Part shown: piece after piece, positions 2,007 to 33,781 of the stretch
Layout: each line of letters begins with the position of its first letter
Numbering within the stretch: the stretch's first letter is position 1
Virus record (IMG/VR): IMGVR_UViG_3300028584_000490
Coordinates: 1 to 37,793 of that record
Reading direction: 5' to 3' (one strand)
Origin: a virus
DNA: 37,793 nucleotides
Made by a program: the position numbers and the translations under genes
The notes under the pieces: generated by a model
What the model was told of the DNA's origin: nothing
The model's input: only the letters and a program-made list of their open reading frames with translations
The model's database searches: none

Positions 2007-2408
2007 ATGTATGCACTAGGAAAAGTTGAACTTGCTATATCGGAACACGCTGTTACTCTAGGTATTCTAGTTAATAGCGTTGGGAAGATTGAGGGCTTTA
2101 TGGAAGAGTCCGTTAAAGGGCAAATGAGACAAGAAGTGCTACTAGAAAAACTCGCAAACTTTGAAGCGAATACTAAGACTAGCTTTGATCGTGCTCATGC
2201 AAGAATAGACAAATTGGAAGCCGACATTACACTAAAAGAAAAATCAATGCGTGACCATATTGAAAGTATTGAGCCTATGGCAACTAATGGTGATCGGGTT
2301 CATAGTGGAATAGTATTTACTGCAAAAGCGTTGAGTGGTTTAGTTTTAACGATGTTGTTTGGGTTGGTTATTTGGGCTATTCAAGCATCAAATTATAAGG
2401 GGCAATAA
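2007..2408 (+). CDS. Coiled-coil protein with C-terminal transmembrane helix (133 aa); possible lysis-associated membrane protein
   Basis: The C-terminal segment GIVFTAKALSGLVLTMLFGLVIWAIQA is a predicted TM helix. The gene abuts the endolysin gene (TAATG overlap). Confidence 0.5.
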   Translation: MYALGKVELAISEHAVTLGILVNSVGKIEGFMEESVKGQMRQEVLLEKLANFEANTKTSFDRAHARIDKLEADITLKEKSMRDHIESIEPMATNGDRVHSGIVFTAKALSGLVLTMLFGLVIWAIQASNYKGQ

Positions 2409-2857
2409 TGCAAGGGTTTCACAAAAATTTCACGTTTGAAGAGTTGACAAACACAAACCATAAGAGCCTATTGGCTCAAAATATCAAAGAAGCTGTCAAG
2501 TATCAAAACGCTGGTAAACGACTGTCAAAGCTGTTGGGCAGTATCCGTGAAGCGTATGGGTTTCCTATCTCTATTACAAGCGGATTTCGCTGTCCTACTC
2601 TCAATGTTGCTATCGGTAGCAAAGCTAAGTCGTCGGCTCATTTACGGTTTGAGGCTGCTGATTGTATTCCCGTTGGCAAAGACTTCAAGCACTTCTTTAA
2701 ATGGCTCAATGAGCATAGCGAACAATTCCACGATCTACGCAAAGCTATTATCGAACATCACAAAGGGATTGTACATATCGAAGTGAAGATGGATGTGGAT
2801 GAGCCACAAGTGTTTTACACCACGAATGACAACGTACATTTTGAGGCGGTGGTGTGA
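2408..2857 (+). CDS. Endolysin, peptidase M15 (Zn D-Ala-D-Ala carboxypeptidase-like) family
   Basis: ITSGFRCPTLNVAIGSKAKSSAHLRFEAADCIP followed by GIVHIEV gives the His-Asp-His metal triad pattern of M15_3-type phage endolysins. The gene sits directly upstream of the holin and spanins. Confidence 0.8.
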   Translation: MQGFHKNFTFEELTNTNHKSLLAQNIKEAVKYQNAGKRLSKLLGSIREAYGFPISITSGFRCPTLNVAIGSKAKSSAHLRFEAADCIPVGKDFKHFFKWLNEHSEQFHDLRKAIIEHHKGIVHIEVKMDVDEPQVFYTTNDNVHFEAVV

Positions 2858-3057
2858 TGAAAAAGCTATCAGATAGTGTTCGTCCAATCCTAACATACCT
2901 CTTTGCTGTTTTATATATTGTAGTGAGTACATGGGGGGTATGGATTGGTAAGATTGAGTTTCAAATCTACTTTGCACAAGTTGGCACAATGGTGGGGATG
3001 ATGGTATCGTTTTGGTTTGGTGAAAAATCAGCTTTGAAAGACCCAAGGGGGGAATAG
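2854..3057 (+). CDS. Holin candidate (67 aa, two TM helices, charged C-terminus)
   Basis: Two predicted TM helices (PILTYLFAVLYIVVSTWGVWI and FAQVGTMVGMMVSFWF), then EKSALKDPRGE. It overlaps the endolysin stop (GTGATGA) and lies between the endolysin and the spanins. Confidence 0.7.
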   Translation: MMKKLSDSVRPILTYLFAVLYIVVSTWGVWIGKIEFQIYFAQVGTMVGMMVSFWFGEKSALKDPRGE

Positions 3058-3059
3058 AT

Positions 3060-3404
3060 ATGGAGCCTATAACATGGATTACGTTTTTAAAGAGATATTG
3101 GAAATTAGCTTTGGTCTTTGTTGTCTTATCGCTATTATCTATTTCACTGGTATGGATGATGATCTCAAACATTAATTTACAAGCTGATAATAGGGTGCTT
3201 AAATCTGAACTACTAAGTATTACTTCACAGTTGGAACAAAGCGCCAAAGAATATGAAACGGCTATGAATGAGTACACAAACAATATTCAAAAAATAAACA
3301 CGGTGTATTTGGATCGTGTGAAAACTATCTATAACATACAAGGAGATAACGATGCGAATGATTGTAATGACACTGCTTTTGTCCTCAATAGTATTGAGTA
3401 TTAG
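3060..3404 (+). CDS. i-spanin (Rz-like; N-terminal TM helix plus coiled coil)
   Basis: N-terminal TM helix WKLALVFVVLSLLSISLVWMMI, then a helical periplasmic region. The lipoprotein gene overlaps its 3' end in another frame. Confidence 0.7.
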   Translation: MEPITWITFLKRYWKLALVFVVLSLLSISLVWMMISNINLQADNRVLKSELLSITSQLEQSAKEYETAMNEYTNNIQKINTVYLDRVKTIYNIQGDNDANDCNDTAFVLNSIEY

Positions 3405-3585
3405 CGGATGTTTTGGCTGTGAGCCACAAGTGATCAAGTGCGTCACGCCACGCGTAGAAAAGCCCATCGTGAGCAATAAGCTCTATGAGGATAGTTTTCA
3501 GGGTGCGAAGCAGTGCGCTATGAATTACTATGCTATGAAGAAGTATGCGGAACTGTTGGAAGAAGCGAATGGGGTTTGTCGTTAA
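3352..3585 (+). CDS. o-spanin (Rz1-like outer-membrane lipoprotein), overlapping the i-spanin by 53 nt
   Basis: Signal peptide MRMIVMTLLLSSIVLSISG followed by Cys (lipobox I-S-G-C). It is a small protein and shows the classic overlapped spanin arrangement. Confidence 0.75.
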   Translation: MRMIVMTLLLSSIVLSISGCFGCEPQVIKCVTPRVEKPIVSNKLYEDSFQGAKQCAMNYYAMKKYAELLEEANGVCR

Positions 3586-3600
3586 AAACAATCCTATATC
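3581..3600 (+). promoter_or_regulatory. Late-block motif copy a (GTTAAAAACAATCCTATATC)
   Basis: One of four related intergenic motifs. It spans the o-spanin stop and ends 35 nt before ATG 3636. Confidence 0.5.
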
Positions 3601-3635
3601 TATGCAAAAATAGTGAAAATAGATAAAGGGTATAG

Positions 3636-3950
3636 ATGAGTTTGCGCAAGATCATATCACGCTCTAAAATCGCTATCTCAAAAGCGCAACAATCCGCTGG
3701 TGTCGCTGTGCCGGATCTCGCTAATCGTGTTACGGCACTGGAACAAGAAGATCAGGCAATCAATACGGATATTACTGCTTTGCAAGGGGTTGATACTACC
3801 CACGGCAATGCTATTACTGCACTACAAAACTACAATACTACCGGATACACTGGCACTATCACTCTTGTCGCTACGGTGAATTTTGTGGCGCAAACACTCA
3901 CTACTAAAACACTCACTTATCTCAATGGAAAATTAACGGAGGTCGTATAA
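3636..3950 (+). CDS. Hypothetical late protein (104 aa, coiled-coil then beta-rich)
   Basis: Clean ORF with SD AAAGGG upstream. Heptad-like segment VTALEQEDQAINTDITALQGVDTTHGNAITALQ. Function unknown. Confidence 0.5.
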   Translation: MSLRKIISRSKIAISKAQQSAGVAVPDLANRVTALEQEDQAINTDITALQGVDTTHGNAITALQNYNTTGYTGTITLVATVNFVAQTLTTKTLTYLNGKLTEVV

Positions 3951-3951
3951 T

Positions 3952-4464
3952 ATGGCAAGTATCGCAAGCACTGATGAGGGGATCACCGGGGTTAAACCTA
4001 GTTATCAAGATCCATTACTGGATACGTTTCGTGAGCTGATGGATGCAGCTAGAACATTTTGCGTCGAAGAGCGTGATGCTGGACGTATTACCCATAAAGA
4101 GTACGCAATGCTGTATTTGCAGACATTGCAAACGTGCATCACAACATCGGCACAGTTAGCGCGTGATGCTGCTGAGCAAGATTTTAAGGTTGCAAATTTA
4201 TTGGATCTTGATAAACAGATCAAAGAGCAACAAGTCAAGCAGCTCAAAGTCGAAGTGGCGCTGAAAACGACGCAAAAAAATCAGATCGAGCAATCGGTGT
4301 ATGATAATAGGCTCATCAAGATCGAGGGCGATTTGGCGGATATGACGGGGATGATCCTCAATGGTGGAACGCAAGCGGTTCCCGCTGGATTGGCAACAAG
4401 TCTCACTAATGCTATCGCTACGCTGGTGGCGATCCCTAAAGAAACTGTGACTATTGAGGCATAA
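3952..4464 (+). CDS. Hypothetical late protein (170 aa)
   Basis: Tightly packed after 3636..3950 (TAATATG). No motif recognised. Confidence 0.5.
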   Translation: MASIASTDEGITGVKPSYQDPLLDTFRELMDAARTFCVEERDAGRITHKEYAMLYLQTLQTCITTSAQLARDAAEQDFKVANLLDLDKQIKEQQVKQLKVEVALKTTQKNQIEQSVYDNRLIKIEGDLADMTGMILNGGTQAVPAGLATSLTNAIATLVAIPKETVTIEA

Positions 4465-4466
4465 TC

Positions 4467-5582
4467 ATGGCTGATATAAGTTATGGTGGCGGCGGTGGAG
4501 GCGGTGGGTATTATCCTCCGAGTTTTGATCCTAATAACCCGATGGGTGGTGGCGGTGGCGGTGCTATCCCCGTATTAAGTCCTGAGCAGCAAGCTTATGT
4601 AAATAATCTATCGTATGCTGTTTCTCATGTAAGTACCCTTGATCCCTCTTTTAACTCAGATTATTTTTCTAGTAATTTTAATGCTCAAAACCCCTATACT
4701 CAATATTATGATGCTACGGCTGCAAATACTCTTGCAAGTGTTTATTATAATATAGGATCTTATGGGAATGAATATCATATTATAGGATATACCTATTCAA
4801 ATGTTCATGGGAAAGACTATATTGATCCAATATATCGTGTTTATGATAATGCTTTTAAACAATTTGAAGCCGCTACTACCTCCGCTCAAAACACCTATTT
4901 ACAGCAACAAACAGATGCCAATAATGCTGCGATTGATGAGGGTCAGGATCTCTATGTTAAATCGTTTGGTAATATTAAAAACCCCTCGATCAAAAGCGAC
5001 ATCGCTACACTCTCGCAACTCAAAGAGCTTTACTCACAGCTGCAATTTCAGCAAGACATCACGCAATATCTCAACCGTGTACCGGATGTCAATAATATCA
5101 ATCAAATGCTTGATTTGGAAAATCGTATCAAGAACATGGAAAGTAATCTCTCTAAGGAGCTAATGGATTATTGGCGGCAGCAAGAGATCCTTAAGAAAAA
5201 AGAGAATGAATTTTTTACGTGGGATTTTAATTGGTTATCTGATCCTTATTTTGGAAAAGGTGGTGGAGCTGGGCAGCAGTTATATCAACTCTATTTGCAG
5301 CAAGAGCAATTTTTGGCAAATAACAACTCGATGATCTCGGATGGATCGATCTATGATTGGATGGCGGGGGGAATATATCTAAATTCAGTTATGCCAGGTG
5401 GTGATCTAAGCGCTCCGTATATGCCCAATGATTATTACAGTGTAGGGCTGCAATATCAAGTTACGGGGACGGATCTCAATGAGGGTTCAAAGATACTCGA
5501 TCCTTGGAGTTCTATGGCTGGGGGTGCATCGTTTGGGTTAAACTCTAGCAGTCGTGCAGCATATCAAGTGTTGGAGTTGTGA
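4467..5582 (+). CDS. Low-complexity late protein (371 aa): poly-Gly N-terminus, N/Q/Y-rich body
   Basis: MADISYGGGGGGGGYYPPSFDPNNPMGGGGGGA followed by N/Q/Y-rich sequence (QNPYTQYYDA, QQLYQLYLQQEQFLANNNS). It sits in the late block. Confidence 0.55.
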   Translation: MADISYGGGGGGGGYYPPSFDPNNPMGGGGGGAIPVLSPEQQAYVNNLSYAVSHVSTLDPSFNSDYFSSNFNAQNPYTQYYDATAANTLASVYYNIGSYGNEYHIIGYTYSNVHGKDYIDPIYRVYDNAFKQFEAATTSAQNTYLQQQTDANNAAIDEGQDLYVKSFGNIKNPSIKSDIATLSQLKELYSQLQFQQDITQYLNRVPDVNNINQMLDLENRIKNMESNLSKELMDYWRQQEILKKKENEFFTWDFNWLSDPYFGKGGGAGQQLYQLYLQQEQFLANNNSMISDGSIYDWMAGGIYLNSVMPGGDLSAPYMPNDYYSVGLQYQVTGTDLNEGSKILDPWSSMAGGASFGLNSSSRAAYQVLEL

Positions 5583-5636
5583 AAAGCAATCTCATTGGTA
5601 CGATAAGATAGTAGTAATTTATAGTAGGAGTGTATT

Positions 5637-5936
5637 ATGGGTGAGCAAAGCTGGTATAGCGGATTGGGTGATTGGTTTGGCAATGCTGCCTCCGGTGCTA
5701 AATCATGGCTTGGAGATGGTAAGAATTTGGCTGGGCTTGGTCAGATTGTTGGAGGGCTGGGCGGTGCTTATGCTGCTAATGAGCAAAGCAAAGCCGCTAA
5801 AGCTATGTTGGACTTGCAAAAGCAATCTTTTTATGATGAGAAAGATCGTCGCAAAAAAACACAACTCACGCTAGATGATGCGTTTAATACAGCTGTTCCA
5901 CTCGTCCCGGCTCCTAAACTAACACTGGGGGCATAA
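5637..5936 (+). CDS. Small glycine-zipper protein (99 aa)
   Basis: GLGDWFGNAASGAKSWLGDGKNLAGLGQIVGGLGGAYAA. SD TAGGAG lies upstream of ATG 5637. Confidence 0.55.
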   Translation: MGEQSWYSGLGDWFGNAASGAKSWLGDGKNLAGLGQIVGGLGGAYAANEQSKAAKAMLDLQKQSFYDEKDRRKKTQLTLDDAFNTAVPLVPAPKLTLGA

Positions 5937-5937
5937 G

Positions 5938-6777
5938 ATGGCTGGTGGTGCAATATTGGATCTTAACCCCTCTCTCATCGGGTATTTGGGCGGGTATGGA
6001 CGTGCGGCAAAATCTATCGGTGATTCGATGGTGGGTGTTGGGCAGTTACAGTTGGACGATAAAAAACGTATTGAAGATGAGCGGATACGAAATGCGACAC
6101 TGAATCTCGCTACTAATGCGGATAAGAGAGCGCAAGATGCTCAGGATTATACGAAGCAGAGAGATTTTGAGACAAAGAATGATAAGTTTAATTCTAATGC
6201 TGCTAATAATGCTTTTTTACTAGGGCAGGATATGCCCCAAGAGATGAGCAATGAGTATGCAAAACTTTCACTGATCGATCCAGCGACTACGGCTGCGATG
6301 CTCAAAAGTGATAAAGAGAAATATGCCGGAACTGCTGGGGGTATAATCTTCAACACTGGAACGGGTGCTATCGCCGGGGATTATCGGGATAAATCAGATA
6401 GCAGCGGGTTTGGCGGCAAAGGTGTTACTCATGTCGATACAATCCAGGGCGGTAAAGTAATGCGTACTTTTATGAACCCAACAACCGGAGAGACTAAGAG
6501 CATTGTAGTCGGTGGGACTCCTACGGGTGTTTATGGGATGCAAGTAGCGGATGGTATTGGGGATGGTAATACAGCGCAGCGACCTAAGATCACTAATACT
6601 ACCACTCAGGAGATTGGCGGTACTAATGTGATGGCAAAGGGCGGTATGCCGATCACATTTGCTAAAGATCCTAAGATCGCAGCGGAGCAAAAGAAGTGGG
6701 CATTGCCTATCGAGGGCGGTGGCTACTATGTGCCTCGTGATATGACGGCTGCTTATAAGAAAGCATTTCCGCGTTAA
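5938..6777 (+). CDS. Hypothetical Gly-rich late protein (279 aa)
   Basis: ATG follows the upstream stop by one base (TAAGATG). Gly-rich segments are present. No family recognised. Confidence 0.55.
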   Translation: MAGGAILDLNPSLIGYLGGYGRAAKSIGDSMVGVGQLQLDDKKRIEDERIRNATLNLATNADKRAQDAQDYTKQRDFETKNDKFNSNAANNAFLLGQDMPQEMSNEYAKLSLIDPATTAAMLKSDKEKYAGTAGGIIFNTGTGAIAGDYRDKSDSSGFGGKGVTHVDTIQGGKVMRTFMNPTTGETKSIVVGGTPTGVYGMQVADGIGDGNTAQRPKITNTTTQEIGGTNVMAKGGMPITFAKDPKIAAEQKKWALPIEGGGYYVPRDMTAAYKKAFPR

Positions 6778-6779
6778 TC

Positions 6780-6798
6780 GTTAAAACCCATCCTATAC
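6780..6798 (+). promoter_or_regulatory. Late-block motif copy b (GTTAAAACCCATCCTATAC)
   Basis: Identical over 19 nt to 32084-32102. It begins 3 nt after stop 6775-6777 and ends 32 nt before ATG 6831. Confidence 0.55.
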
Positions 6799-6830
6799 AG
6801 CGGGTACACTAAGAAAAAAAAGGTGTACTC

Positions 6831-9800
6831 ATGGCTGATGTATGGTCACGACTCGGTATCAAACCCTATGAAGCCGATCCTAAAAAAGTAAAACTCACTC
6901 TCGAAGATGCTCCCAAGGTGGAAGCGAAGCCACAAGCACAAGATACGAGCCGTAGCATTGGTCAAATTATCCTCGATACCGATGCACAGTTTGGCCAGGG
7001 TGCCGGATCACTCGTGCAAACATTCGGAGATTTGGGGCAGCTTGCTACGGGTAATAAAAACTCTCTTCAATCGTATGGTCAAGAGGTCAAAGACTTCTAT
7101 GGCAATCTTCTCTCCCCTCAATACAAACAAGAAGGTAAAGACGTATCGGCTGCGATCAAAGCAAAAGATGGAGAGATCGCGCAAGCGGTTGAGGCTATCA
7201 AGCAATATGCTACACATCCCTCGCAGCTATCGGGTGCAATTGTAGGATCAATCCCGGCTATGGCTGCGGGCGGTGTCCCTGGTAAAGTGCTGGGATTGGG
7301 TGCTGGTGCATTGGGAATTGGAGCTACGGGGGTTACGCGTGCCTCTATCGGTGGGGCTGCTGCGGGTGAATCAGTAATACAAGGTGGTCAAACGGGGGGC
7401 GAAGTGCTACGCGGTGATTTGAATCAAGCTGCAAATTCCGATTGGACTCCTAAGTATTCCCAAGAAGAGATACTAGATCGTGCGCGTACTGCTGCGCTGG
7501 GTTCTGCTGCTACTACTGCCCTCACCTATGCGATCCCTGGATCAACAACAATCGAAAAAGCATTGTTGGGTGTTGAGAATAAAGTGGGAAGCCGCGCTGT
7601 TAATACGGCTAAGGGTTTTGCGGGTGAAATGGGTCAAGAGGGAATCCAGGGTGGTACAGGGCAAATGTCTCAAAACTATGCCGAAGATAAACCACTCACG
7701 CAAGGTGTCGGAGAGGTTACTGCAACGGGCGCTCTCATCGGTGGGATCATGGGTGGTGGTATGGGGTTTGCCAATAGCACATCCAGCGCACCACAAGCAG
7801 CCCCTAAAAAACCTAGTGAGACGATCAACGTCGAAGAGGAAGTAAAGAGCGAAGCAAAGAAGCAAGCTTACACCTGGGCTACGCAGCGTGAGGGCGAAGT
7901 ACGTCAAGAAGCAGCGCAAGCAAAGGCGCACGTCAATGAAATGCTCAATAACGGGTTAGATCCAAAGAGTGTACGTGCTACGCTGGATAATCTCATCACG
8001 CCAAGTGCAGCCGATGTGAAACTAACTCAACTGCTCAATGAGGGTACGATCCTACCCTCTAACATGACGGGTATGCGTATCGTGCCTCTCATTGAAGATA
8101 CGATACAAGCCTCTATCGATGCGCCGGAACTTGCCCGTACCAATCAAGAACTAGAATCGGTACTCAAACAAGCGGGCATGAGTAAACGTCTCACGCAGAT
8201 CATTACTGCTGCGTATGCTGCTAAAGATCCTCAAATACTCAAAGATCACATCCAAGAGACACTTGATGGTAATACGCATGAGTTTGTCGATCATGCACCG
8301 ATCCAAGAAGCGATCATGCAGCAAGTAGCACAGCTTGACGAACAACACGCGATACAAATGGAAGCTATCAAGCAGCAAGAGGAAGAACAAAAAGCTATCG
8401 AAACGCTATCAAATGATAGCGAAAGTGTAGCGGTTGAGCCGAAACAAGAAGAGGTAATTTTTAAGCCCGCACAAGGGAAGCGTGCAGTGCGCGGTGAATT
8501 GTTTGATCTACCTTTTGGATACAAAGGTGTTATTGTTAAGAACCAGGCGGGGGATGCTGCTGAACTGTATGAGTATTCCACGGGATCACGTTTGTCGGGG
8601 TATAGTGCTGGTACAAGCTGGAAGCTAGATGAGTCTATTGCCGAGGCGCGTAATAAAATGGAACGTACCGGGGAAGAAAAGCTCGCGCAGCATTTTGAAG
8701 AGATTAAAAATGATAGAGGTATCACTAACACTGAAATCGTTTATGCTAAAGCTCCTACTATTACCAAAGAGAAAGAACTTGTAACAATAGAATCATTTAA
8801 TCGAGATGGAATAGCAATTGAAGTAAGCGGAACACCAATTAAGCTTTCAAATAATATCAATGCTATTATCACTAAACGTGATGATGGTTGGCATATCACT
8901 GAATCTGATGTAGGCGCACCACTAGGCGGAGGCAAAACAAGAAAAGAGGCTATTGATGCTGTTAATAATTCTATTCAGAAAATAGGAATTGAAAAATATT
9001 CAACACTTATTGAAAAGAAAAGAAAAGAATATGACATATTTCGTCTCCCTATTGAGGAAGTAAAGCAGTTCTTTAATGGGATGGATGCTAATGAAAAGAT
9101 AGAGTTTTCAAAGTCATGGGGCAGCAATACGCCTGAATGGTGGGCAGATAAAAATTGGGATGATTTAAGAAGCGATCAGCACGATGCACTTAAAAGCGTA
9201 TATTTAGGTCATAATAGAAATAAGAGTGATACAATACTAGATGATACTAAAACAATATCAAAAGATACTAAAACAACACTAAAAGGGGTGAAAGATGAAG
9301 AAGTACAACCAATTCGAGGCAATGATGGCGCTGGAAGCGAAGATACCGGATCAACAACGGTACGACCTGATGAAGCAAGTAACCCAAGGGGAAGCGATGC
9401 TGCCCGCGATGGAGGCATCGATGGAGAGACGAAAGGCGCAAGCAATGTTGTCGGAGCAGTACGATCACCTAAATCGGATATTGGGAACAGTGGCGGGGAT
9501 GATGCAGTATCCCAAGGAACTGAGCCAATGGAACGATACGCAGCCCCTAGCAGTGATGATACAAACGCTGCCGGAGTTGGAATCGACACAGTGGTATCAA
9601 GCGGTGGTGAACAAAATCTTAACCTAGAGGGCAAAGATCCTATCATACTTACAAGAGGTCAGCGTAGAGATATAAACTACCAGGCAAAAGCCATTCTCGA
9701 AAAAGGTGCGCCATACAGCGAAGCCGACAAAGAGATCCTACGCCAATACACCGGAGAGGGCGGGTTGGTATCCTCTAAAGAATCTCTCACACAACACTAC

Positions 9801-12800
9801 ACACCGTATCAAACGATCAAAGCCATTTATAACGCTCTCGATGTTGCGGGGTTTGCTCCCAAAACTGCATTAGAGCCAGCGGTGGGAAGCGGGAATTTTG
9901 TCGGGTTTCGTCCTGATCTCGCGTGGACGACTATCGACATCGATAAAACCAATCACGAGGTTGTCAATGCGCTGTACCCAAAAGCCAATAACTATCATAA
10001 CGGGTTTGAAGAGTTTAAGGGCAAAGGGTTTGATCTCATCATCTCCAATGTACCGTTTCTCGAAGAGCGCGGCGCGGGACTGCTCAAAGATCGTAAAGAC
10101 ATTAAGATGCTGCACGATTACTATTTTGCAGCGGCTATGGATAAGGTCAATGATAATGGGATCGTGGCGTTTGTCACGTCCAAGGGGACTATGGATAAGT
10201 CCGATGGTGCTATTCGTAAAGAGGTAGTGAGTCGGGGCGATATTATCGGAGCGTATCGTTTGCCTAGTGGTACGTTTTCTAAAAATGCGCATACCGATGT
10301 TGTCACCGATGTGATCTTCATCCAAAAACGTCCGGAGGGTGTGGAGCCTAGAGAAGAGCGTGCGCGTGACAATGAGGCGTTTGTGTCCTCTACCAAAACA
10401 GCTGATGATATATACATGAATACCTATTTTCAAAACCATACGTCCAATATCCTGGGCGATGTTAAAGCGGGGATCGATAAAGCCTATGGCCGTCCCGCGT
10501 ATGAGATCACGGGTACACCGGATTACAGCCGCATGAAGATCGACTATGCAGCGTATGGGAAAGAGAACCAAAAAGATGCAGCCAATGAGACACAGACTAT
10601 CCCTACAAACAGCAAAGAGTTTAAACAGTATGCCCAAGATAACGCGATTGAGTACACCAGCCATAAAGGTAGTGGGATCGTTATCGATGGTAGCAATGTT
10701 TTAGCGCAGCGTGAAGTGGAGTTTTCGGACATCGATCAAAAGGCGTACTATTATGAGCCATTAACGGACAAGGGGTTGTCCGATAAGATCCTAGCCCTGG
10801 ATAAGATCGTAGCAGCGGGTGAGGCTAATAACCTCGAAGAGGGGACAAAGCTCATCGATGCCTACAAAGCAGCGTTTAAAACCCACCCTAAGAAAGATAA
10901 AGCCCTGGGCAAAGCATTGCGCGAAGCGGGGGAAGATCAGAAGGTGTATGAGTATGGTAGTTTGTTTAATGATAAGTTTATACCTAGTGATATATTCCGT
11001 GAGCAGACACGCTATACCGGAAGCGGTAAAGCAGATATAAGCGAATCATCCCCACTCAAAGAACGATTATTTTACTCCGAGAACAACGAGGGTAAGCTCA
11101 ATATCAGAACCTCAAAGCTCCTGGATATGGATGAGTTCGGGGATATGCTCAAAGATGATAACTATGCCTATATTGGAGAGTTTAGCGTACAAAACAAGAT
11201 CCTCTATTACAGCGGCAATATCTATGATAAGATCGATGAGATTACTAAGATCCGGGATCAAAATTTAGGGGTTAAAAAATACGATGATGCAATCAGTGAG
11301 AAGCTCGATCTTCAACTCAAAGCACTCGAAGCCATACTGCCTGAACCCAAGAAGGTGGATGAGATCGAGTTTAAGGGAATAGAGAAGTGGATCAGCGATG
11401 CGGGGATCGAGATCCCGTTTAAGATGGTCAAGAAAACAGAGAAGCTACGCGACAATGGCGGGACTAAGACAACAGAGGAATGGCAAAGCGGATACGGTAA
11501 TATTTTTGATAATTACCTAAACGGCAAGCAGCTTATCTCAGCAAAACAAGATGAGTCAATGGCCTCGTTTAAAAACCGTTTGCGCGAAGCACAGCAAGAA
11601 GTGGCAACGGTACAAGACAAGTATCGTGCCTGGCTGTCAAGCAAGGGGCATACTGAGGCGTTTGAGAAAGCCTATAACAAACGCTTTAACGGATACGTGC
11701 AGCCGGACTATCTCGCAGCCTCGTACCTGATCCAGGACACACTCGATGCGCTGCCAAAAGAACTCACACTGCGCAGCAATCAGATCCAATGGATCATGCA
11801 AGCATATTATGAGGGTAAGGGGATCAATGCGCATGATGTTGGGGGCGGTAAGACGTTGGCTGGGATCGTGTTGGCAAAAGTCCTCAAAGATAAAGGGGCT
11901 GCTACAAAGCCGATCTTTGTTGTGCCGTCCAAGGTTATCAAGAATTGGGTTAAAGAGATCAAGCGTGCCGTACCGGATGCGAAGATCGTGGATTTGGGGA
12001 GTCTCTCAAAAGATAAGCGCGAATCGATGCTGCACGATTTGGCAAACACCAATGCCGATTATGTGCTGATTTCAAAAGAGGGTTTCCAGGCGCTCAAACT
12101 GCCGCTGCAAAAAGAGATCGATTATGCAACGCAGCTGTTACGAGAGAATTTGCAAAACGATAACCTAACCGGACGTGCTGAACAAGTAGCCAATGAGAAA
12201 GTAGAGCGCTATTTGGCGGTACTAAGAACCGATAATAAAAACAAATCGATCACGATTGACAAGCTGGGGATCGATGCCGTGTTCGCCGATGAAGCACGCA
12301 GCTATAAAAATATTGGGGTTAGCAGTGATCTTGTCGGTAATAAGCTGGGTAAAGCGTTTAGCATGAAAGAGAACGAGAAAACTAAGACCGTAAGTATCGA
12401 CAGTGCTATGGCGTATGATTTTCGTTTTAAAACCCGCTACATCGCAGAGCGTAACAATGGGCGTAATGTATTCTTACTCGATGCAACACCTACACCAAAC
12501 AAGCCTATCGAGATCTTCACGATGCTCAAACACCTGGACAATAATATATTCGATGAGTATGGGATCACTACGGATCGTGATTTTGCTAATATGTTTTTTG
12601 AGTTTGGGATTAAGCCTACTAAGACGGGGGGCATGGATAAAGGGTTGATCGCGCTTAAAAATGCGTTTGGACTCAAAGGGATCATGAATCGCTACATCAA
12701 TCGAATCAGCATGGCAGATTTTGCCAGCCAAAAGATCATCGATCTACCCGAAGAGAAAGTGATTAACCACTACCTCGATCAAACCGATGAGGGCGATATA

Positions 12801-14111
12801 GTGTTTACGGATATTGCTAAACGTATGCAAGAAGCAAAAGCCGATAAAGAGAAACGTAAAGAGATACCAGGGATATTTAGCAACGGGATCACGGCAAGTG
12901 TCGATCCAAGATTGTATCAGCGTATGGGGATCACAGACATACTTGATCCTACACCGGATAATCATAAGATCGCCAAGGTGATCGATCTCGTTCTATCCAA
13001 ACGCGGCATCGATGCGAAGTCGGGGCAGATCATATTCCTAGACAGTGCCGGGCATACGGCAAGTGATACGAATGTAAAGGTAGATAAGACAACGGGAGTC
13101 GAGACTGTTTATGCTGCTACCCTGGAACAAAACCTACACCGTGATATGAAAGATAAGCTTATCGCTAGTGGCAAATATAAAGCTAATGAGATTGCTATCC
13201 TAAGTGGCCAGGAGATCACTGATCCAAGAACGGGTAAAGAGACGGGAGCTACGGGCGATAAAGCGCAGCAACTCAAGCAAGATATTGTTGATGCGTATGA
13301 TGCCGGGCAAGTTAAGGTAATCATCGGAACAACTAAGAGTGCGGGTGAGGGGATGAATATCCAAAAGTTTACGACGGATATTTACCACATCGATCTACCC
13401 TGGACGATTGCCGAAGTAATCCAGCGCAATGGGCGTGGGGTACGGTTTGGTAATCAAAACGCAAGTGTAAACCTACACTACTTTTTCCAGGCGGGGACGT
13501 TTGACTCTCTCATGTATAAAACAGTCATGAATAAAAAAGGATGGAATGAGGCGCTATGGGATACCAAAGTAGAGGATCGTATGGAAGTCGTGGACGAGGG
13601 TGGATCGATGCCAAGTCCAGCGGAGATCATGTTAGCTATGGAAAAAGATCCTATTAAGAGGAGACAATTAGAACTAGAGATCGAATACCAGCGCCTCAGT
13701 GATGAATATAACAATGTTACCGATGAAGTTAAAGCCATCGAGCGCAGAATATCAACCATAACAACAGAGCAGCGCGACGAGGGCAATAAGCAACGTGATC
13801 TCGAAGCACGTATGAAAGATCCAACGCCTACGCTAGAGCTGCGTGAGCTGCAAGAGAAGATGCACAAAGAGCCTAAGAAGTACAAAGCAAAGTTTGAGGA
13901 AGTCCAGGCGCGCGTTAAGAAGAGCCAAGAGGGTATGCACGCGCAACGTGTAGCTAAGATGGAGAATCTCAAGAAAGAAGAAGTGCGACGATACGAAGCA
14001 CTCAAAACAGCGAGAGAGAATCATACTAAAGTCGCGGGCGAACTAAGAGATTTTGAGGATAAGTACATGGATAACCGGGGTAATTTTATAGCTGAAGTGG
14101 AGTGTGCGTAA
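6831..14111 (+). CDS. Giant polyvalent protein (2426 aa): N-terminal glycine-zipper region, tandem small modules, acidic G/S/D disordered linker, N6-adenine DNA methyltransferase domain, SNF2/DEAD-type helicase domain, C-terminal coiled coil (P1 DarB-like architecture)
   Basis: Uninterrupted 7.3 kb ORF. MTase motif I EPAVGSGNFVG (nt ~9873) and motif IV DLIISNVPF (nt ~10044). Helicase motif I DVGGGKTLAG (nt ~11835), motif II FADEARSYKN (nt ~12288), motif III LLDATPTPN, motif V GTTKSAGEGMNIQ, and motif VI QRNGRGVRFGN (nt ~13422). Confidence 0.85.
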   Translation: MADVWSRLGIKPYEADPKKVKLTLEDAPKVEAKPQAQDTSRSIGQIILDTDAQFGQGAGSLVQTFGDLGQLATGNKNSLQSYGQEVKDFYGNLLSPQYKQEGKDVSAAIKAKDGEIAQAVEAIKQYATHPSQLSGAIVGSIPAMAAGGVPGKVLGLGAGALGIGATGVTRASIGGAAAGESVIQGGQTGGEVLRGDLNQAANSDWTPKYSQEEILDRARTAALGSAATTALTYAIPGSTTIEKALLGVENKVGSRAVNTAKGFAGEMGQEGIQGGTGQMSQNYAEDKPLTQGVGEVTATGALIGGIMGGGMGFANSTSSAPQAAPKKPSETINVEEEVKSEAKKQAYTWATQREGEVRQEAAQAKAHVNEMLNNGLDPKSVRATLDNLITPSAADVKLTQLLNEGTILPSNMTGMRIVPLIEDTIQASIDAPELARTNQELESVLKQAGMSKRLTQIITAAYAAKDPQILKDHIQETLDGNTHEFVDHAPIQEAIMQQVAQLDEQHAIQMEAIKQQEEEQKAIETLSNDSESVAVEPKQEEVIFKPAQGKRAVRGELFDLPFGYKGVIVKNQAGDAAELYEYSTGSRLSGYSAGTSWKLDESIAEARNKMERTGEEKLAQHFEEIKNDRGITNTEIVYAKAPTITKEKELVTIESFNRDGIAIEVSGTPIKLSNNINAIITKRDDGWHITESDVGAPLGGGKTRKEAIDAVNNSIQKIGIEKYSTLIEKKRKEYDIFRLPIEEVKQFFNGMDANEKIEFSKSWGSNTPEWWADKNWDDLRSDQHDALKSVYLGHNRNKSDTILDDTKTISKDTKTTLKGVKDEEVQPIRGNDGAGSEDTGSTTVRPDEASNPRGSDAARDGGIDGETKGASNVVGAVRSPKSDIGNSGGDDAVSQGTEPMERYAAPSSDDTNAAGVGIDTVVSSGGEQNLNLEGKDPIILTRGQRRDINYQAKAILEKGAPYSEADKEILRQYTGEGGLVSSKESLTQHYTPYQTIKAIYNALDVAGFAPKTALEPAVGSGNFVGFRPDLAWTTIDIDKTNHEVVNALYPKANNYHNGFEEFKGKGFDLIISNVPFLEERGAGLLKDRKDIKMLHDYYFAAAMDKVNDNGIVAFVTSKGTMDKSDGAIRKEVVSRGDIIGAYRLPSGTFSKNAHTDVVTDVIFIQKRPEGVEPREERARDNEAFVSSTKTADDIYMNTYFQNHTSNILGDVKAGIDKAYGRPAYEITGTPDYSRMKIDYAAYGKENQKDAANETQTIPTNSKEFKQYAQDNAIEYTSHKGSGIVIDGSNVLAQREVEFSDIDQKAYYYEPLTDKGLSDKILALDKIVAAGEANNLEEGTKLIDAYKAAFKTHPKKDKALGKALREAGEDQKVYEYGSLFNDKFIPSDIFREQTRYTGSGKADISESSPLKERLFYSENNEGKLNIRTSKLLDMDEFGDMLKDDNYAYIGEFSVQNKILYYSGNIYDKIDEITKIRDQNLGVKKYDDAISEKLDLQLKALEAILPEPKKVDEIEFKGIEKWISDAGIEIPFKMVKKTEKLRDNGGTKTTEEWQSGYGNIFDNYLNGKQLISAKQDESMASFKNRLREAQQEVATVQDKYRAWLSSKGHTEAFEKAYNKRFNGYVQPDYLAASYLIQDTLDALPKELTLRSNQIQWIMQAYYEGKGINAHDVGGGKTLAGIVLAKVLKDKGAATKPIFVVPSKVIKNWVKEIKRAVPDAKIVDLGSLSKDKRESMLHDLANTNADYVLISKEGFQALKLPLQKEIDYATQLLRENLQNDNLTGRAEQVANEKVERYLAVLRTDNKNKSITIDKLGIDAVFADEARSYKNIGVSSDLVGNKLGKAFSMKENEKTKTVSIDSAMAYDFRFKTRYIAERNNGRNVFLLDATPTPNKPIEIFTMLKHLDNNIFDEYGITTDRDFANMFFEFGIKPTKTGGMDKGLIALKNAFGLKGIMNRYINRISMADFASQKIIDLPEEKVINHYLDQTDEGDIVFTDIAKRMQEAKADKEKRKEIPGIFSNGITASVDPRLYQRMGITDILDPTPDNHKIAKVIDLVLSKRGIDAKSGQIIFLDSAGHTASDTNVKVDKTTGVETVYAATLEQNLHRDMKDKLIASGKYKANEIAILSGQEITDPRTGKETGATGDKAQQLKQDIVDAYDAGQVKVIIGTTKSAGEGMNIQKFTTDIYHIDLPWTIAEVIQRNGRGVRFGNQNASVNLHYFFQAGTFDSLMYKTVMNKKGWNEALWDTKVEDRMEVVDEGGSMPSPAEIMLAMEKDPIKRRQLELEIEYQRLSDEYNNVTDEVKAIERRISTITTEQRDEGNKQRDLEARMKDPTPTLELRELQEKMHKEPKKYKAKFEEVQARVKKSQEGMHAQRVAKMENLKKEEVRRYEALKTARENHTKVAGELRDFEDKYMDNRGNFIAEVECA

Positions 14112-16291
14112 TGGGTTGTGATTTAAAGAAGAGAAAAGCGCAGTATGATAGCCTCGTAGATAAGATGTTTGGGAAGCTTGAAGATTGGAATAGTATCGAT
14201 AAGACGTTTGACAAGTTAGAAGGTGGGCTGATCGCTGCGGATAAGTACGTCGTGAACAAAGTCAATGCCTCACAAGAGAAAGTAAAAGTAAAAAATCTGT
14301 TTGCAATCCATGAGACAGAGCGTGTTTTCAGTGAATGGATGCGGGAGTTGCGTATCCAAAAGCAGATGATCGCGGATCGTGCGCAGCAGACACAAGAGTT
14401 TTTGCAAGGGTTGAGTGAAGAACATAGCGAGCAGCTGGTGCGTGCACTCAATGGTGACATCGATGCGATCACACTGCCACAAGAACTGCGCGGAGTCTAT
14501 GACACGTTTCGTGAAGCGATCAATAGCAATGCTAGAGAACTCGTAGAGCTGGGTGTACTCAAAGAAGAGAACATGATAAGCGATTACCTCAAACGCTACT
14601 ACAAAGATTTCCTCGATACGAGCGGCAGCGGTAAGGCGTATTTTGACAAGCGGTTTAAAGCACGTAAAGACTTGACGCATGATGAACGCCTGGCAAAAGG
14701 GATGATCGAAGATGCAAGCTATGTGATCCCTAAGACAATGGCAGATCAAAAGCTCCAAGCACTCAAAGCAAAAGTGTTGCAAAGCATCGCCGATAAGTTC
14801 GGGAAAGACAAAGAAGAAGAGGGATATGTCCAGGTTCCGGATACTACTGTGGGCGGTGGGGTTAAAATGTACGGAGCATTATCGGGTAAATATGTACCCG
14901 AAGAGATCCTATCCTCTCTCAAGGGGGCATCGTTCGCACGCAAGCAGCTAACTGCTTGGGAGGGGTGGGTTGGTTTCATCGATCATATTAAGGTTAATAT
15001 GACGGTCAAGAATCCATTTACCCACGTTTATAATGTAGGATCAAATGTTCTCATGTCGTTTTTACATGGAGACGTGCAAGCCCTGGGTCGTGTTTTGGAT
15101 ATGGCGCATCGGGATAAGGTAAAGTTTCGTGCGTTGGTCGAAGAGGCAAACAAATACGGGCTTAATACGCTTCTGGGAGATATGGAAGATCAACTCGTCC
15201 TGGATGAGAATGGAAGCCCTAGCCTCATCAAGACGATTGCTAAAAATCTCTACATGACACAAGACTCTAAGATGGGTAAAGGGATGCGCAAGGCGTATGA
15301 GTGGGAGGATAAGATCTTCAAGCTTGCAGCGTTTGAGGGCAATATGAAAAAAATGCGTGAAGAGCTGGGGCGAGAACTAACCGAAGATGAGAAGCGCACC
15401 GCGTTTCGTGAAGCGAATGAGGCGTATGTTGATTATGACTCTCCGCTGCCGGATGGTGTTAAGCTATTGGATAAATCCGGGTTGTTTCCGTTTCTCCACT
15501 ATACTTGGAAATCATCGCCCGTAGTTGCCAAAGCTGCACTCAAACATCCGGTACGGTTTGCGATCATGCAAGCGGCACTCATCGGTTTGGGAGCCTCGGC
15601 ATGGTTTGGGGACGATGATGATGATCTAAAGCCGGGTTGGGCTGCTAGTCAATGGAATCTATTGGGATCTAAAGAGTGGGTTAATCTCCATAATGGGCTG
15701 TTTCTCAATGCGGGTCGTCTCGTCCCTGGTGCGAAGATCGGTGGGCTTGATTTTAGTGGTGGGTTTATCGGTGGTATGATTAACATCGGTGGAGGTAAGA
15801 CTACGCTTGGGTATGATTTTGTGAACAAGTACGATACTGTTGGGGAGAGTGTCGTTAAACGTGTAGCGACGTTTGCGGAGAGCTATGCACCTCCTATATC
15901 ACCTATCGGGCGTTATGGGCAGCGCCTAGTAAAGAACGCAATGGGTGAGGGAAAGAAGAACAGCAGCACCGGGGAGATCATGGATACGAAAGAGATCCTA
16001 TCACAGCCGCTAGGGTTACGCAAGTTTGATGCGAAGCATGAAGCGCAGCTCAAAGCCAATGCGATCAAGAATAAATACGTGCGGATGGTAGAAAAGGGCG
16101 AGGATAAAACGGATGCCGCAAAGGTGTATCGTGATGAGCGTCGTGAGCTGATGGATAGTGTAGCGAAACAAAAAGTAGTAGGGTTGAAGCTCGATGATAC
16201 TCCGCCAAAAGCGGATAAGGAAGTGGAAGGGGAAGCAGCTAAGAAGAAAAAGAGTTTGTCGCTGCTAAGTCCGGTGAGGTTGAAGTTATGA
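14111..16291 (+). CDS. Hypothetical large late protein (726 aa) translationally coupled to the polyvalent gene
   Basis: ATG 14111 overlaps the polyvalent stop (TAATG); the track's earlier ATG 14102 is inside the upstream gene. Contains GDDDDDLKPGW and Gly-rich GGLDFSGGFIGGMINIGGGKT. No family recognised. Confidence 0.6.
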   Translation: MGCDLKKRKAQYDSLVDKMFGKLEDWNSIDKTFDKLEGGLIAADKYVVNKVNASQEKVKVKNLFAIHETERVFSEWMRELRIQKQMIADRAQQTQEFLQGLSEEHSEQLVRALNGDIDAITLPQELRGVYDTFREAINSNARELVELGVLKEENMISDYLKRYYKDFLDTSGSGKAYFDKRFKARKDLTHDERLAKGMIEDASYVIPKTMADQKLQALKAKVLQSIADKFGKDKEEEGYVQVPDTTVGGGVKMYGALSGKYVPEEILSSLKGASFARKQLTAWEGWVGFIDHIKVNMTVKNPFTHVYNVGSNVLMSFLHGDVQALGRVLDMAHRDKVKFRALVEEANKYGLNTLLGDMEDQLVLDENGSPSLIKTIAKNLYMTQDSKMGKGMRKAYEWEDKIFKLAAFEGNMKKMREELGRELTEDEKRTAFREANEAYVDYDSPLPDGVKLLDKSGLFPFLHYTWKSSPVVAKAALKHPVRFAIMQAALIGLGASAWFGDDDDDLKPGWAASQWNLLGSKEWVNLHNGLFLNAGRLVPGAKIGGLDFSGGFIGGMINIGGGKTTLGYDFVNKYDTVGESVVKRVATFAESYAPPISPIGRYGQRLVKNAMGEGKKNSSTGEIMDTKEILSQPLGLRKFDAKHEAQLKANAIKNKYVRMVEKGEDKTDAAKVYRDERRELMDSVAKQKVVGLKLDDTPPKADKEVEGEAAKKKKSLSLLSPVRLKL

Positions 16292-17404: not shown

Positions 17405-18043
17405 ATGGTTATTACAGTAGCTCATCAAAAAGGTGGTGTGGGGAAAAGTACGATCGCTAGTAATTTGGCGGTCGAGTATTTCAAAACGTATGGGGATCGT
17501 CTCACGGTTGTGGATTTGGATACGCAGCGATCATTGACGTATTTTAATAATATACGAAAATACAATGGAATCCAAGAGCTGCCGATCGTCCAGGTGAAGA
17601 GCGCGGATGAGCTTACGGCAGTGATTAAAGCAAACAAGGGATTGATCCTCATCGATGCTGGAGGGTTTGATAGTGATGTGAATCGTGTGGCGATGCTGCA
17701 CGCGGATCGGATCATCACTCCGGTGAGCGATAGCAGCTTTGAGCTGGGTGGGTTGATGATGTTTCGCGGGATCTTGCGAGAGCTTCGTGCTGCTCGTCCT
17801 GATCTTGTCGCTACTGTGCTGCTCAATCGGGTGCATCAGTTCGCGGGGAAGAGTTTGGAGGAGATCTTCGACTTTGCTCGCAGCAATGAGGAGTTTGGTA
17901 TTTTTGAGACGATCCTACGAGATCGAGGGGAGTACAAACGTGCGACGGAAAATGGAAAGAGCGTTGTAGAGCTTGTGAGAGACGGCAAAGCAGCGCAAGA
18001 GATCACTAATTTGATGGAGGAGATGGATAATGAACAAGTTTAA
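17405..18043 (+). CDS. parA: ParA-family partition ATPase (small, type Ib-like, 212 aa)
   Basis: Deviant Walker A HQKGGVGKSTIASNLA. AGGAGG at 17393-17398. It is followed by an overlapping small RHH gene. Confidence 0.85.
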   Translation: MVITVAHQKGGVGKSTIASNLAVEYFKTYGDRLTVVDLDTQRSLTYFNNIRKYNGIQELPIVQVKSADELTAVIKANKGLILIDAGGFDSDVNRVAMLHADRIITPVSDSSFELGGLMMFRGILRELRAARPDLVATVLLNRVHQFAGKSLEEIFDFARSNEEFGIFETILRDRGEYKRATENGKSVVELVRDGKAAQEITNLMEEMDNEQV

Positions 18044-19474: not shown

Positions 19475-19714
19475 TTATTTCTTTGGGGTATTTCGTTTAT
19501 CTTCTGATGGGAGGACTTGTTTTGCTGATCCGTCAGGGTTGTAGATTACCTTTATATCATCGGTGAATTTCATTCGTACCATTGTCCCTAAAAACTCCTG
19601 AAACACTTCACCCGTATCATCATTGATAATGGTAAAGCGTTCAGAATCTTTTACATAGACCCATTTCGCGTTGGCGCTTACTATGATCAGTGCTGCTAAT
19701 ATAATTTTTTTCAT
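19475..19714 (-). CDS. Small exported protein (79 aa, Sec signal peptide)
   Basis: MKKIILAALIIVSANA then KW (AxA cleavage-like site). ATGA overlap with the repressor stop. Confidence 0.6.
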   Translation of the reverse strand: MKKIILAALIIVSANAKWVYVKDSERFTIINDDTGEVFQEFLGTMVRMKFTDDIKVIYNPDGSAKQVLPSEDKRNTPKK

Positions 19715-20361
19715 CCGTGATACTCCATTGTGTAGATTACTTGCCCTAATATTTCTATCTCATCTTTTTTAATATTAAATTGTGGGTAGTCGGGGTTATC
19801 ACTTTTTACGATCAACCCATTATGGGCTACAAATAGCCGTTTAACAAAGATCTCATCGTTCATGCGGATAATAAAAATTTTGCCGTTTTTAATTTCGTGT
19901 TGGAGCTTATCAACGAAGATCATATCTCCATCGTTTAGGGTTTGGTTCATACTATCACCACTTACTTTTATCGCTTCAATAAGCTTGGAAGAGGTGCGTG
20001 GCAATAGGTTGTGATCCACAAAGATCATATCATACTCACAATGATCCCCATTAAGACATCCAAATCCAGCTGATGCAGATATATCCTGGAAAAGTTTTAC
20101 TGCAATTTTTCCTACTGGCGCATCATCTCCAAGATTTAGGCGAGGGGAGATCTTCATCTCACCCAACCCATAGAAGATATATTCTAAATTTGCATCTGTA
20201 TCACGCAAATTATTGACTATTGCTTCATGAGGGATAGCATTTCTTCTTTTTCTCTCGTAAATATTTGCTGCTGTTAATCCAATAATTTGTGCTATTTCTT
20301 TGTCATCTGTAACTTTAAAAAAAGTTTTTAAGCGCAATAGCACATTATTTATGTCATTCAA
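19711..20361 (-). CDS. CI/LexA-like phage repressor (HTH + S24 peptidase autocleavage domain)
   Basis: N-terminal HTH (KEIAQIIGLTAANIYERKRRNAIP). S24 catalytic Ser in VSGDSMNQTL and Lys in EIFVKRL. It is divergent from an XRE gene. Confidence 0.85.
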   Translation of the reverse strand: MNDINNVLLRLKTFFKVTDDKEIAQIIGLTAANIYERKRRNAIPHEAIVNNLRDTDANLEYIFYGLGEMKISPRLNLGDDAPVGKIAVKLFQDISASAGFGCLNGDHCEYDMIFVDHNLLPRTSSKLIEAIKVSGDSMNQTLNDGDMIFVDKLQHEIKNGKIFIIRMNDEIFVKRLFVAHNGLIVKSDNPDYPQFNIKKDEIEILGQVIYTMEYHG

Positions 20362-20470: not shown

Positions 20471-20689
20471 GTGGTAAGTCAAAATATTAAGATTTTTCGT
20501 GTTACATTAAAGCTCGATCAAGATGAATTTGCAAAGCGTTTAGGCGTGACTCAGCCGACAATATCAAGCTGGGAAAACGGAAAAACAAAGCCCGATGTGG
20601 ATCATATTTTGACTATTGTTGATATGGGTGCGAATATTTATTTTATTTTGCATGGTATTGGATCACCACTTATGAGGATGAGCGCATGA
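20471..20689 (+). CDS. Cro-like XRE-family HTH regulator (72 aa)
   Basis: LDQDEFAKRLGVTQPTISSWENGKTKP is a canonical XRE HTH. The start is GTG, and the gene is divergent from the repressor. Confidence 0.75.
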   Translation: MVSQNIKIFRVTLKLDQDEFAKRLGVTQPTISSWENGKTKPDVDHILTIVDMGANIYFILHGIGSPLMRMSA

Positions 20690-21063: not shown

Positions 21064-21112
21064 GTCTCCTGGCTACCACCGCGCGATCGTTTGCACTGCC
21101 AAAAGGGAATTT

Positions 21113-26804: not shown

Positions 26805-26855
26805 CAGCGATGGTAGAGATGGCGTATATTCGTGGATTTAATGAAGGGGCTTGTA

Positions 26856-31814: not shown

Positions 31815-31822
31815 AATATCTT

Positions 31823-32102: not shown

Positions 32103-32141
32103 GTAGCGTACTCTTTGGAAAATAAAACCCAAGGGTACATT

Positions 32142-33767: not shown

Positions 33768-33781
33768 TTGTGTAAAAACAC

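Follow-up and report, generated by a model that had tools for sequence, protein, structure and literature searches.

Predicted late promoters with a clade-specific upstream box in a phage-plasmid lineage linked to Sulfuricurvum and Sulfurimonas

The stretch of DNA considered here, referred to as the window, is the whole of the IMG/VR virus record IMGVR_UViG_3300028584_000490 (37,793 nucleotides), which, judged by its gene content, appears to represent a temperate phage-plasmid. A box of about 19 nt recurs in the window ahead of blocks of late genes, each time followed at a fixed distance by a -10 hexamer, and these sites are probably late promoters that a protein of the phage would switch on. 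To our knowledge, essentially nothing is known about gene regulation in the phages of Sulfurimonadaceae and other environmental Campylobacterota.

The middle promoters of phage T4 combine a σ70 -10 hexamer (TAnnnT) with a MotA box that replaces the -35 region, and region 4 of the sigma factor is remodelled by AsiA. In phage P1, the Lpa box of the late promoters is centred near -22. Eleven such promoters, under positive control, are dispersed in P1, each with a σ70 -10 and a conserved phage box, a 9-bp inverted repeat, in place of the -35 (PMC10695390). The four late promoters of Mu (Plys, PI, PP and Pmom) show a recognisable -10 and no typical -35, the -35-like and -10 hexamers of Pmom being 19 bp apart, and the target of the C protein is a 16-bp imperfect dyad with its centre at -43.5, protection extending from about -30 to -55 (PMC2582627). 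The T4 promoter classes have been summarised elsewhere (PMC6024815, PMC7403470). In the RinA/ArpU/Ltr systems of temperate Gram-positive phages, the genes for packaging, morphogenesis and lysis are expressed from a dedicated promoter that a small phage activator turns on (PMC3152322).

From their sequence, the sites in the window would work in the manner of the P1 Lpa, Mu C and T4 MotA promoters, and they appear to belong to none of these families. The window shares with P1 the plasmid prophage, several dispersed late promoters and the combination of a -10 with a phage-specific box, but the box here is asymmetric, about 14–19 bp long and located at about -37 to -19, and no Lpa-like protein was found in profile scans. 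As in Mu, a -35-like hexamer is displaced (19–21 bp from the -10 here). There is, however, no dyad, the box lies further downstream and conservation drops upstream of -38; no match to a Mor/C-family protein was found among the open reading frames (ORFs) submitted to Pfam and PHROG scans. The T4 middle promoters are alike in geometry alone, namely an asymmetric box and a -10: the box does not conform to the MotA consensus, (a/t)(a/t)(a/t)TGCTTtA with its centre at -30, no homologues of MotA or AsiA were found in PHROG scans, and T4 is virulent, with another host and lifestyle. The RinA/ArpU/Ltr systems usually have one promoter upstream of terS, whereas here there are at least five and terS and terL lie outside the blocks that the boxes would control; profile scans of the ORFs gave no RinA-like match. 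Control of the lambda Q type involves a single late promoter with a Q-binding element, a pause close to the promoter and terminators further on, in contrast to five sites here, and the scans gave no Q-family match.

Boxes and -10 hexamers in the window

Five boxes were found in the window, all on the + strand and intergenic (Table 1), with no further copy on either strand. The original prediction, made from the sequence alone, had counted four (a to d) and overlooked the more divergent box e, which was recovered by a register-based search; its coordinates were right for a, b and c, but d had been placed at 33782–33800, 10 nt too far to the right. Boxes b and c are identical at 19 of 19 positions, as had been described, and the consensus of the window boxes is GTnAAAAnnnATCy. 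When the 19-mer was searched for across the window with up to three mismatches, three matches were found where 0.01 were expected. The core AAAMMMATCCTAT has four exact matches, every one on the + strand and intergenic, in keeping with the placement first reported. The pattern GTNAAAANNNRTSY has exactly five matches, which are the five sites, against 1.19 expected (37.8 kb, both strands), a comparison that overstates the evidence somewhat because the pattern was derived from the sites; addition of an in-register ANNNT still left five matches, against 0.13 expected. Chance does not account for the copies. Pattern searches of both strands also bore out the claim that the early and leftward regions are free of the box, as are the coding regions. 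The exact 19-mer was not found in IMG/VR.

A σ70-type -10 hexamer (xAnnnT) is present at a fixed distance from each box, at box positions 26–31. With the hexamer set as -12 to -7, the box is at about -37 to -19. The resemblance between b and c that had been seen to continue downstream as 'AGCG..TAC' is present, and it corresponds to the spacer and the -10 hexamer (TACACT and TACTCT). At sites a and d, a TG lies two bases 5′ of the hexamer. Start codons follow 20–29 nt past the hexamer, and the short leaders include Shine–Dalgarno sequences. The box is asymmetric, with no dyad common to the five sites, and no shared element was found among them 3′ of the -10.

The arrangement of the late blocks had been described correctly, with c preceding the portal gene, d the head-fibre-lysis block, a the Gly-rich block and b the polyvalent block; box e divides the Gly-rich block in two. 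A position at or just after a stop codon, proposed for all copies, fits a, b and d, but c lies 270 nt past the rep gene, beyond the origin.

The sole -35-like hexamer in the window sites (GTGAAA or GTTAAA) is 19 bp from the -10, and across all clades examined the spacing is 19–21 bp (GTGAAA or TTGACA), which is too long for an unaided σ70 holoenzyme. A scan for consensus σ70 promoters called none of the five sites. The early leftward promoter candidate is a canonical TTGACA-17-TAGTAT, and the cI-cro region has a distinct palindromic operator and no box, so the box is not a general feature of the promoters of this phage.

Conservation and replacement of the box in related genomes

Relatives were drawn from IMG/VR, JGI metagenomes, GTDB genomes and Logan/NCBI/JGI assemblies (exact-protein look-up), and about 15 of the relatives are full-length (33–38 kb). 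Twelve related genomes, most of them from metagenomes and with links to Sulfuricurvum, Sulfurimonas and Helicobacteraceae, were compared at the sites flanking the portal gene (c and d). The close clade, with portal identities to the window of 89% (L012), 74% (L002), 70% (L013), 62% (L004) and 60% (L008), has the window-type box with a -10 both before the portal gene and just behind it. L010 and L013 have further copies in front of their ORF 5637 and polyvalent-gene homologues, with an additional copy 5′ of the lysis genes in L010. Exact box matches in the window, L013, L012, L010 and L008 were on the + strand, intergenic and accompanied by a hexamer in register in 16 of 17 cases.

When the five window sites were aligned with nine sites from the close relatives L002, L004/L010 and L008 (60–74% portal identity), all 14 shared G1 T2 n A4–A7 followed by (A/G)T(C/G) at positions 11–13, and all 14 had a hexamer [T/C/A]AnnnT at positions 26–31 (AAAAAT, TAAGAT, TACACT, TACTCT, TATAGT and others). 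The hexamer at site c was TACTCT or TATTCT in every close relative. Among the close-clade orthologues of site d that were examined, it was TATAGT with a single exception, the first site behind the portal gene in L012, which has TATATT. The leader TACACTAAGAAAAAAAAGGTGTAC at site b is conserved in L010.

In the more distant genomes (42–58% portal identity), a different box was found at both portal-flanking sites, repeated within the genome and followed by TAnnnT at a fixed 3′ offset (Table 1). All clades have the 5′ part of the box in common (TGAnAAA, in some TTGACA), and the 3′ part is particular to the clade (ATCCTAT in the window; ATAGCA, CTCGTG or ATACGGGAA in others) and near-identical between sites within a genome. 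The hexamer was in register at the c and d sites in 11 of the 12 genomes. Retention of the box and -10 at orthologous sites supports the promoter reading, the box sequence differing from clade to clade.

Comparison of site c with site d within each of the 12 genomes gave an identity of 0.67–1.0 over most of -37 to -24, with two positions at 0.50 and 0.42, and of 1.0 at -12, -11 and -7. In the spacer between box and -10 it was 0.08–0.42, and upstream of -38 it was 0.08–0.58, mostly at or below 0.4 with only two positions around -41 at 0.5–0.6. This profile is as would be expected for a two-element promoter with an upstream element read by a factor that co-evolves with the phage.

The surroundings of the portal site also differ between clades. 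In the window, box c is preceded by the replication origin rather than by a gene, and in L004 it lies directly 3′ of a hairpin followed by a T-run. In L005, L006, L011 and L016, the module for replication and terminase has the opposite orientation to the structural genes, and immediately upstream of the predicted portal promoter is a small gene of the cI type with a helix-turn-helix. The genes upstream being on the opposite strand or cI-like, the portal operon of these four genomes needs a regulated promoter of its own, and the distant clades have the portal box at the head of an operon.

Behind the portal gene of L012 (11643–13400), the closest relative, a gene for a 436-aa polysaccharide deacetylase-like protein has been inserted. 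A box accompanied by a -10 stands on either side of it, an arrangement suggestive of a moron with an acquired or duplicated late promoter. A scan of IMG/VR for the distant-clade box with a -10 gave mostly single matches that are probably due to chance.

Promoter model and alternatives

We consider it reasonably probable that each of the five boxes is the upstream half of a late promoter under the positive control of a phage-encoded factor that reads the box. The fixed-offset -10, the conservation and the position at operon starts make the phage-specific late promoter or activator box of the original prediction the best-supported reading. From these features we infer that transcription starts at the sites, that control is positive and that the factor comes from the phage. 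Each promoter would have two parts, a primary-sigma-type -10 (T/A-A-n-n-n-T, TG-extended in two cases) and the asymmetric box at about -37 to -19, standing in place of the -35 hexamer and the upper spacer. In its 5′ part (GTnAAAA; in relatives TGAnAAA or TTGACA), the box looks like a -35 element, but one placed 19–21 bp from the -10. The host RNA polymerase holoenzyme would read the -10, and an early or middle protein of the phage bound to the box would recruit or re-position the polymerase, acting as a class II-type activator or remodelling sigma region 4, and thereby replace the contact normally made with a correctly spaced -35. Transcription of the portal gene, the head-fibre-lysis block, the internal virion proteins and the polyvalent protein would then be on in lytic growth only. 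The internal promoters d, a, e and b would add to read-through and raise expression of the downstream blocks, since no terminator precedes them, and they would determine in what proportion the protein blocks are made.

Positive control of late genes in phages is a well-known regulatory logic, and no new principle is involved. The comparison-supported model concerns a phage lineage without studied relatives, and it delimits a predicted late regulon made up of the four blocks just named, with the terminase excluded. The clade-specific boxes amount to a natural specificity-swap series, which renders a search for the activator tractable, and the box patterns can aid annotation of operon starts in metagenomic relatives.

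Several points weigh against this model. The orthologous sites are not independent observations, and the degenerate patterns behind the statistics were taken from the sites themselves. L014 has no d site, and the hexamer of its c box TGTGAAACTAGTA is out of register. For the distant clades, the approximately 10 kb examined contained only the copies at c and d. Most of the -10 hexamers are weak (AAAAAT, TACTCT, TACACT and TAAGAT). Predicted pairing of the box or -10 region with the Shine–Dalgarno region at sites a, b, c and d could mean a role at the RNA level in read-through transcripts. No late-activator, sigma, Mor/C, Q, Lpa or RinA family was matched among nearly all ORFs (Pfam, PHROGs, NCBIfam), and neither profile scans, PDB sequence search nor fold searches with two candidates revealed an activator, a sigma factor or a sigma-remodelling protein.

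Negative control is the main rival, with promoters usable by the unaided host polymerase and the box serving as an asymmetric operator for a phage repressor, like the dispersed asymmetric C1 operators of P1, so that each late promoter would stay shut in the lysogen. A protein on the box would obstruct the polymerase, as the box covers the -35 and the spacer; the 5′ part of the box is a perfect TTGACA in distant clades, a plasmid prophage has to silence its late genes, and an operator would co-vary with the phage clade as the box does. We nevertheless regard negative control as unlikely, given that the TTGACA-like hexamer lies 19–21 bp from the -10 in every clade, a poor arrangement for unaided σ70, and that the -10 hexamers are mostly weak. 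The cI-cro operator differs in being palindromic and boxless, so that a second repressor would be needed and none is evident.

Still less probable are plain host-polymerase promoters, in which the box would be a -35 or upstream element favoured by the Sulfurimonadaceae polymerase and timing would come from read-through or copy number. A host-polymerase preference leaves unexplained why the 3′ half is clade-specific and near-identical within a genome, constitutive late promoters would be intolerable to a prophage, and the early promoter regions are box-free, although a σ70-type -10 is present at every site and the shared 5′ part, TGAnAAA or TTGACA, looks like a -35 hexamer. Alternative sigma factors were rejected on inspection, the sites fitting neither the σ28 nor the σ54 consensus. 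A recombinase crossover site of the hix/gix type was ruled out as the box is not palindromic. No convincing inverted repeats flank the sites as would be needed for a promoter switch invertible by the adjacent serine recombinase, and the box is retained in distant clades that do not have the recombinase.

Stop codons overlap or immediately precede boxes a, e, b and d, which, with no terminator in front, are probably transcribed by read-through. An RNA-level signal in a long late transcript, whether a processing site, a nut/put-type anti-terminator or translational control via the ribosome-binding site, was considered, and part of it had been offered as the alternative in the original prediction. 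The pairing with the Shine–Dalgarno region at a, b, c and d (z -1.4 to -2.3) and a hairpin at site b that is identical in L010 speak for such a signal. However, Rfam gave no matches at gathering thresholds, no tRNA was found, and single-sequence folds of the sites had unremarkable z-scores of -1.4 to -2.3 and differed from site to site, with no fold common to the five. For site c, the RNAalifold consensus of six orthologues was approximately 0 kcal/mol without covariation, and the site d hairpin is missing from L004 and L008. Neither the in-register TAnnnT nor the position of site c at an operon start in distant clades would be explained, and we think it quite improbable that the boxes act at the RNA level.

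Local RNA features were also observed. Boxes a and d contain an anti-Shine–Dalgarno CCT that pairs with a downstream AGG. The site b hairpin (GTACAC-N13-GTGTAC, 6804–6829) overlaps the -10 and the Shine–Dalgarno sequence of the polyvalent gene and is found unchanged at 13217–13242 in L010 despite protein identities of 30–60%; it could form in read-through transcripts only and would then mask the ribosome-binding site. The site d hairpin (ACATCC-TATGG-GGATGT, 33780–33796) spans the spacer between box and hexamer, and is kept in L002 with one compensatory change from A-T to G-C.

A promoter for a phage-encoded single-subunit RNA polymerase of the T7 or N4 type would account for a contiguous motif of about 19 nt ending in CCTATA, which we take to be superficially like the T3 promoter AATTAACCCTCACTAAAG, and the ORFs at 6831–14111 and 14102–16291 have PHROG matches to a virion RNA polymerase. 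These matches are, however, limited to profile positions 191–607 and 3241–3365, the non-catalytic ends, and the homologue of the giant protein in L010 has just 1470 aa. CCTATA is replaceable in relatives, the downstream TAnnnT being invariant, and this explanation is highly improbable. The phage lacks an RNA polymerase; of the candidates rejected, the 888-aa ORF is a primase-helicase, and the giant protein has a DarB-like methyltransferase and an SNF2 helicase in its middle.

Turning to the factor that would read the box under positive control, the earlier statement that no dedicated late regulator is identifiable agrees with the Pfam, PHROGs and NCBIfam scans. The Pfam scan covered only about 20 ORFs, mostly early and giant, and a few short or junction-spanning ORFs lay outside every library scan. 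A very remote Lpa homologue could still escape the PHROGs, Pfam and NCBIfam searches, which gave no match to one. Early proteins kept across the clades are Cro, the orphan protein of 125 aa, the primase, the DUF736 protein and the TerS-like protein. The small proteins at 25759–27080, which had been put forward as the possible regulator, are weak candidates because the ORFs there (25747–27080) are not conserved among relatives that share the box.

We propose tentatively that the box is read by a previously undescribed protein family of this phage-plasmid lineage, a new sigma-appropriation or class II-type late activator, for which the 125-aa protein, the DUF736 protein and a helical 186-aa protein encoded upstream of terL are candidates. 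Such a protein would recognise a bipartite asymmetric box, with the conserved TGAnAAA in the 5′ half and a clade-specific 3′ half, and would offset a -35-like hexamer displaced by 2–4 bp, its specificity co-evolving with the box. PDB sequence searches with the three proteins found nothing. AlphaFold models of the 125-aa and 186-aa proteins had predicted local distance difference test scores of 81.6 and 69, respectively, and Foldseek found no match to either in the PDB with E <1. A literature search on DUF736 found no functional data. All 27 homologues of the 125-aa protein are within this phage group, and it may instead be an origin-binding protein, as it adjoins an iteron-like repeat cluster whose repeat unit is not the same in L002 as in the window. 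The TerS-like protein consists of helices throughout, its N-terminal segment resembles a helix-turn-helix, and it has no PDB neighbour.

Gene content and other features

The first 237 bases of the window recur exactly at its end (1–237 and 37557–37793), and it is thus a circular assembly with a unit genome of 37,556 bp and a G+C content of 43%. The phage-plasmid lifestyle is indicated by a plasmid-type replication module, consisting of Rep3 and iterons, together with ParA. The phage-plasmid is uncultured, and it probably inhabits a Sulfuricurvum- or Sulfurimonas-like bacterium among the sulfur-oxidising Campylobacterota; portal homologues bear the labels Sulfuricurvum sp. and Sulfurimonas sp., and one relative was located in a Helicobacteraceae metagenome-assembled genome. 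No close relatives were found among GenBank phages or PLSDB plasmids (megablast, tblastn), the nearest GenBank phage proteins having only about 24% identity to the window portal protein, and the published Sulfurimonas prophage SNW-1 is a different, long-tailed phage.

Table 1. Positions of the boxes, -10 hexamers and genes in the window, and boxes at the portal-flanking sites of distant relatives
Feature	Position	Strand	Remarks
Box a GTTAAAAACAATCCTATAT	3581–3599	+	About -37 to -19; overlaps stop codon of last lysis-cassette ORF (3352–3585); precedes internal (Gly-rich) virion proteins (ORF 3636)
Box e GTGAAAAGCAATCTCATTG	5579–5597	+	Fifth, more divergent copy; overlaps stop codon of ORF 4467–5582; precedes ORF 5637, inside Gly-rich block
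Box b GTTAAAACCCATCCTATAC	6780–6798	+	2 nt past stop codon of ORF 5938–6777; precedes polyvalent protein gene (6831)
Box c GTTAAAACCCATCCTATAC	32084–32102	+	Between plasmid-type origin and portal gene; precedes portal gene
Box d GTAAAAACACATCCTATGG	33772–33790	+	4 nt past portal stop codon; precedes head-fibre-lysis block (ORF 33832, head module)
Site a, extended -10, TGc AAAAAT	3603–3611 (hexamer 3606–3611)	+	ORF 3636 start 24 nt 3′
Site e, -10 TAAGAT	5604–5609	+	ORF 5637 start 27 nt 3′
Site b, -10 TACACT	6805–6810	+	Polyvalent gene start 6831
Site c, -10 TACTCT	32109–32114	+	Portal ATG 32142
Site d, extended -10, TGt TATAGT	33794–33802 (hexamer 33797–33802)	+	ORF 33832 start 29 nt 3′
Lysis cassette	2007–3585		Last ORF 3352–3585
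Internal (Gly-rich) virion proteins	3636–6777		Includes ORFs 4467–5582, 5637–5936 and 5938–6777
Polyvalent protein	6831–14111		2426 aa
729-aa protein	14102–16291		3′ of polyvalent gene
ParA	17405–18043		
cI-like repressor	19711–20361	-	S24 peptidase
cro	20471		
Orphan gene	20686–21063		125 aa
Primase-helicase	22457–25123		888 aa; D5/DUF5906
DUF736 gene	25120–25620		
TerS-like gene			5′ of PAPS-reductase-domain gene
TerL	28836–30362		
Rep3-family initiator	31059–31814		
Serine recombinase gene			Part of window gene content
Portal	32142–33767		SU10-type
Major capsid protein	34547–35455		SU10-type
Tail-fibre ORF	About 36222 to 759		Spans the circular junction
L005–L007, c and d box			TGACAAAATAGCA
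L011, c and d box			TGACAAACTAGCA
L015, c and d box			AAAACTTCTAAAAACTCGTG; c and d identical at 20/20
L016, c and d box			CTGACAwwT..TCTA
L017, c and d box			ACTGArAAAATACGGGAA

Six iterons of about 22 bp (CCGTAAACGGYWC followed by a T-run) were found at 31814–31955, 3′ of the Rep3-type initiator gene, and beyond them a DnaA-box-like TTATTCACA and then an AT-rich stretch. The element TTCACAnnCCTAAATACTTCTAA is present 5′ of box c and is kept in relatives. A second repeat cluster, at 21100–21350 between the orphan 125-aa gene and the primase zinc-ribbon gene, contains at least six copies of TGTTGCGGC or its complement GCCGCAACA; at the equivalent place in L002 the repeat is another one, TGTTACGCTTC. 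This cluster may be a lytic origin bound by the 125-aa protein or the primase.

The terminase genes are in the rightward early operon, upstream of the origin, and have no box. In the window alone, a PAPS-reductase-domain gene (28041–28826) separates the TerS-like gene from terL, and the two terminase genes abut in every relative examined.

In the 2426-aa protein, a DarB-like methyltransferase and an SNF2 helicase are joined to an N-terminal region that resembles the one in the N4 virion RNA polymerase, and the C-terminus of the 729-aa ORF resembles that of the N4 enzyme. As a pair they resemble an ejected-protein scaffold in which the polymerase module has been swapped for an anti-restriction module. 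A diversity-generating retroelement (bAvd and reverse transcriptase) was found beside the tail-fibre genes in L016 (13159–14741) and L017 (15845–17462), and in L016 a tyrosine integrase replaces the Rep and resolvase genes.

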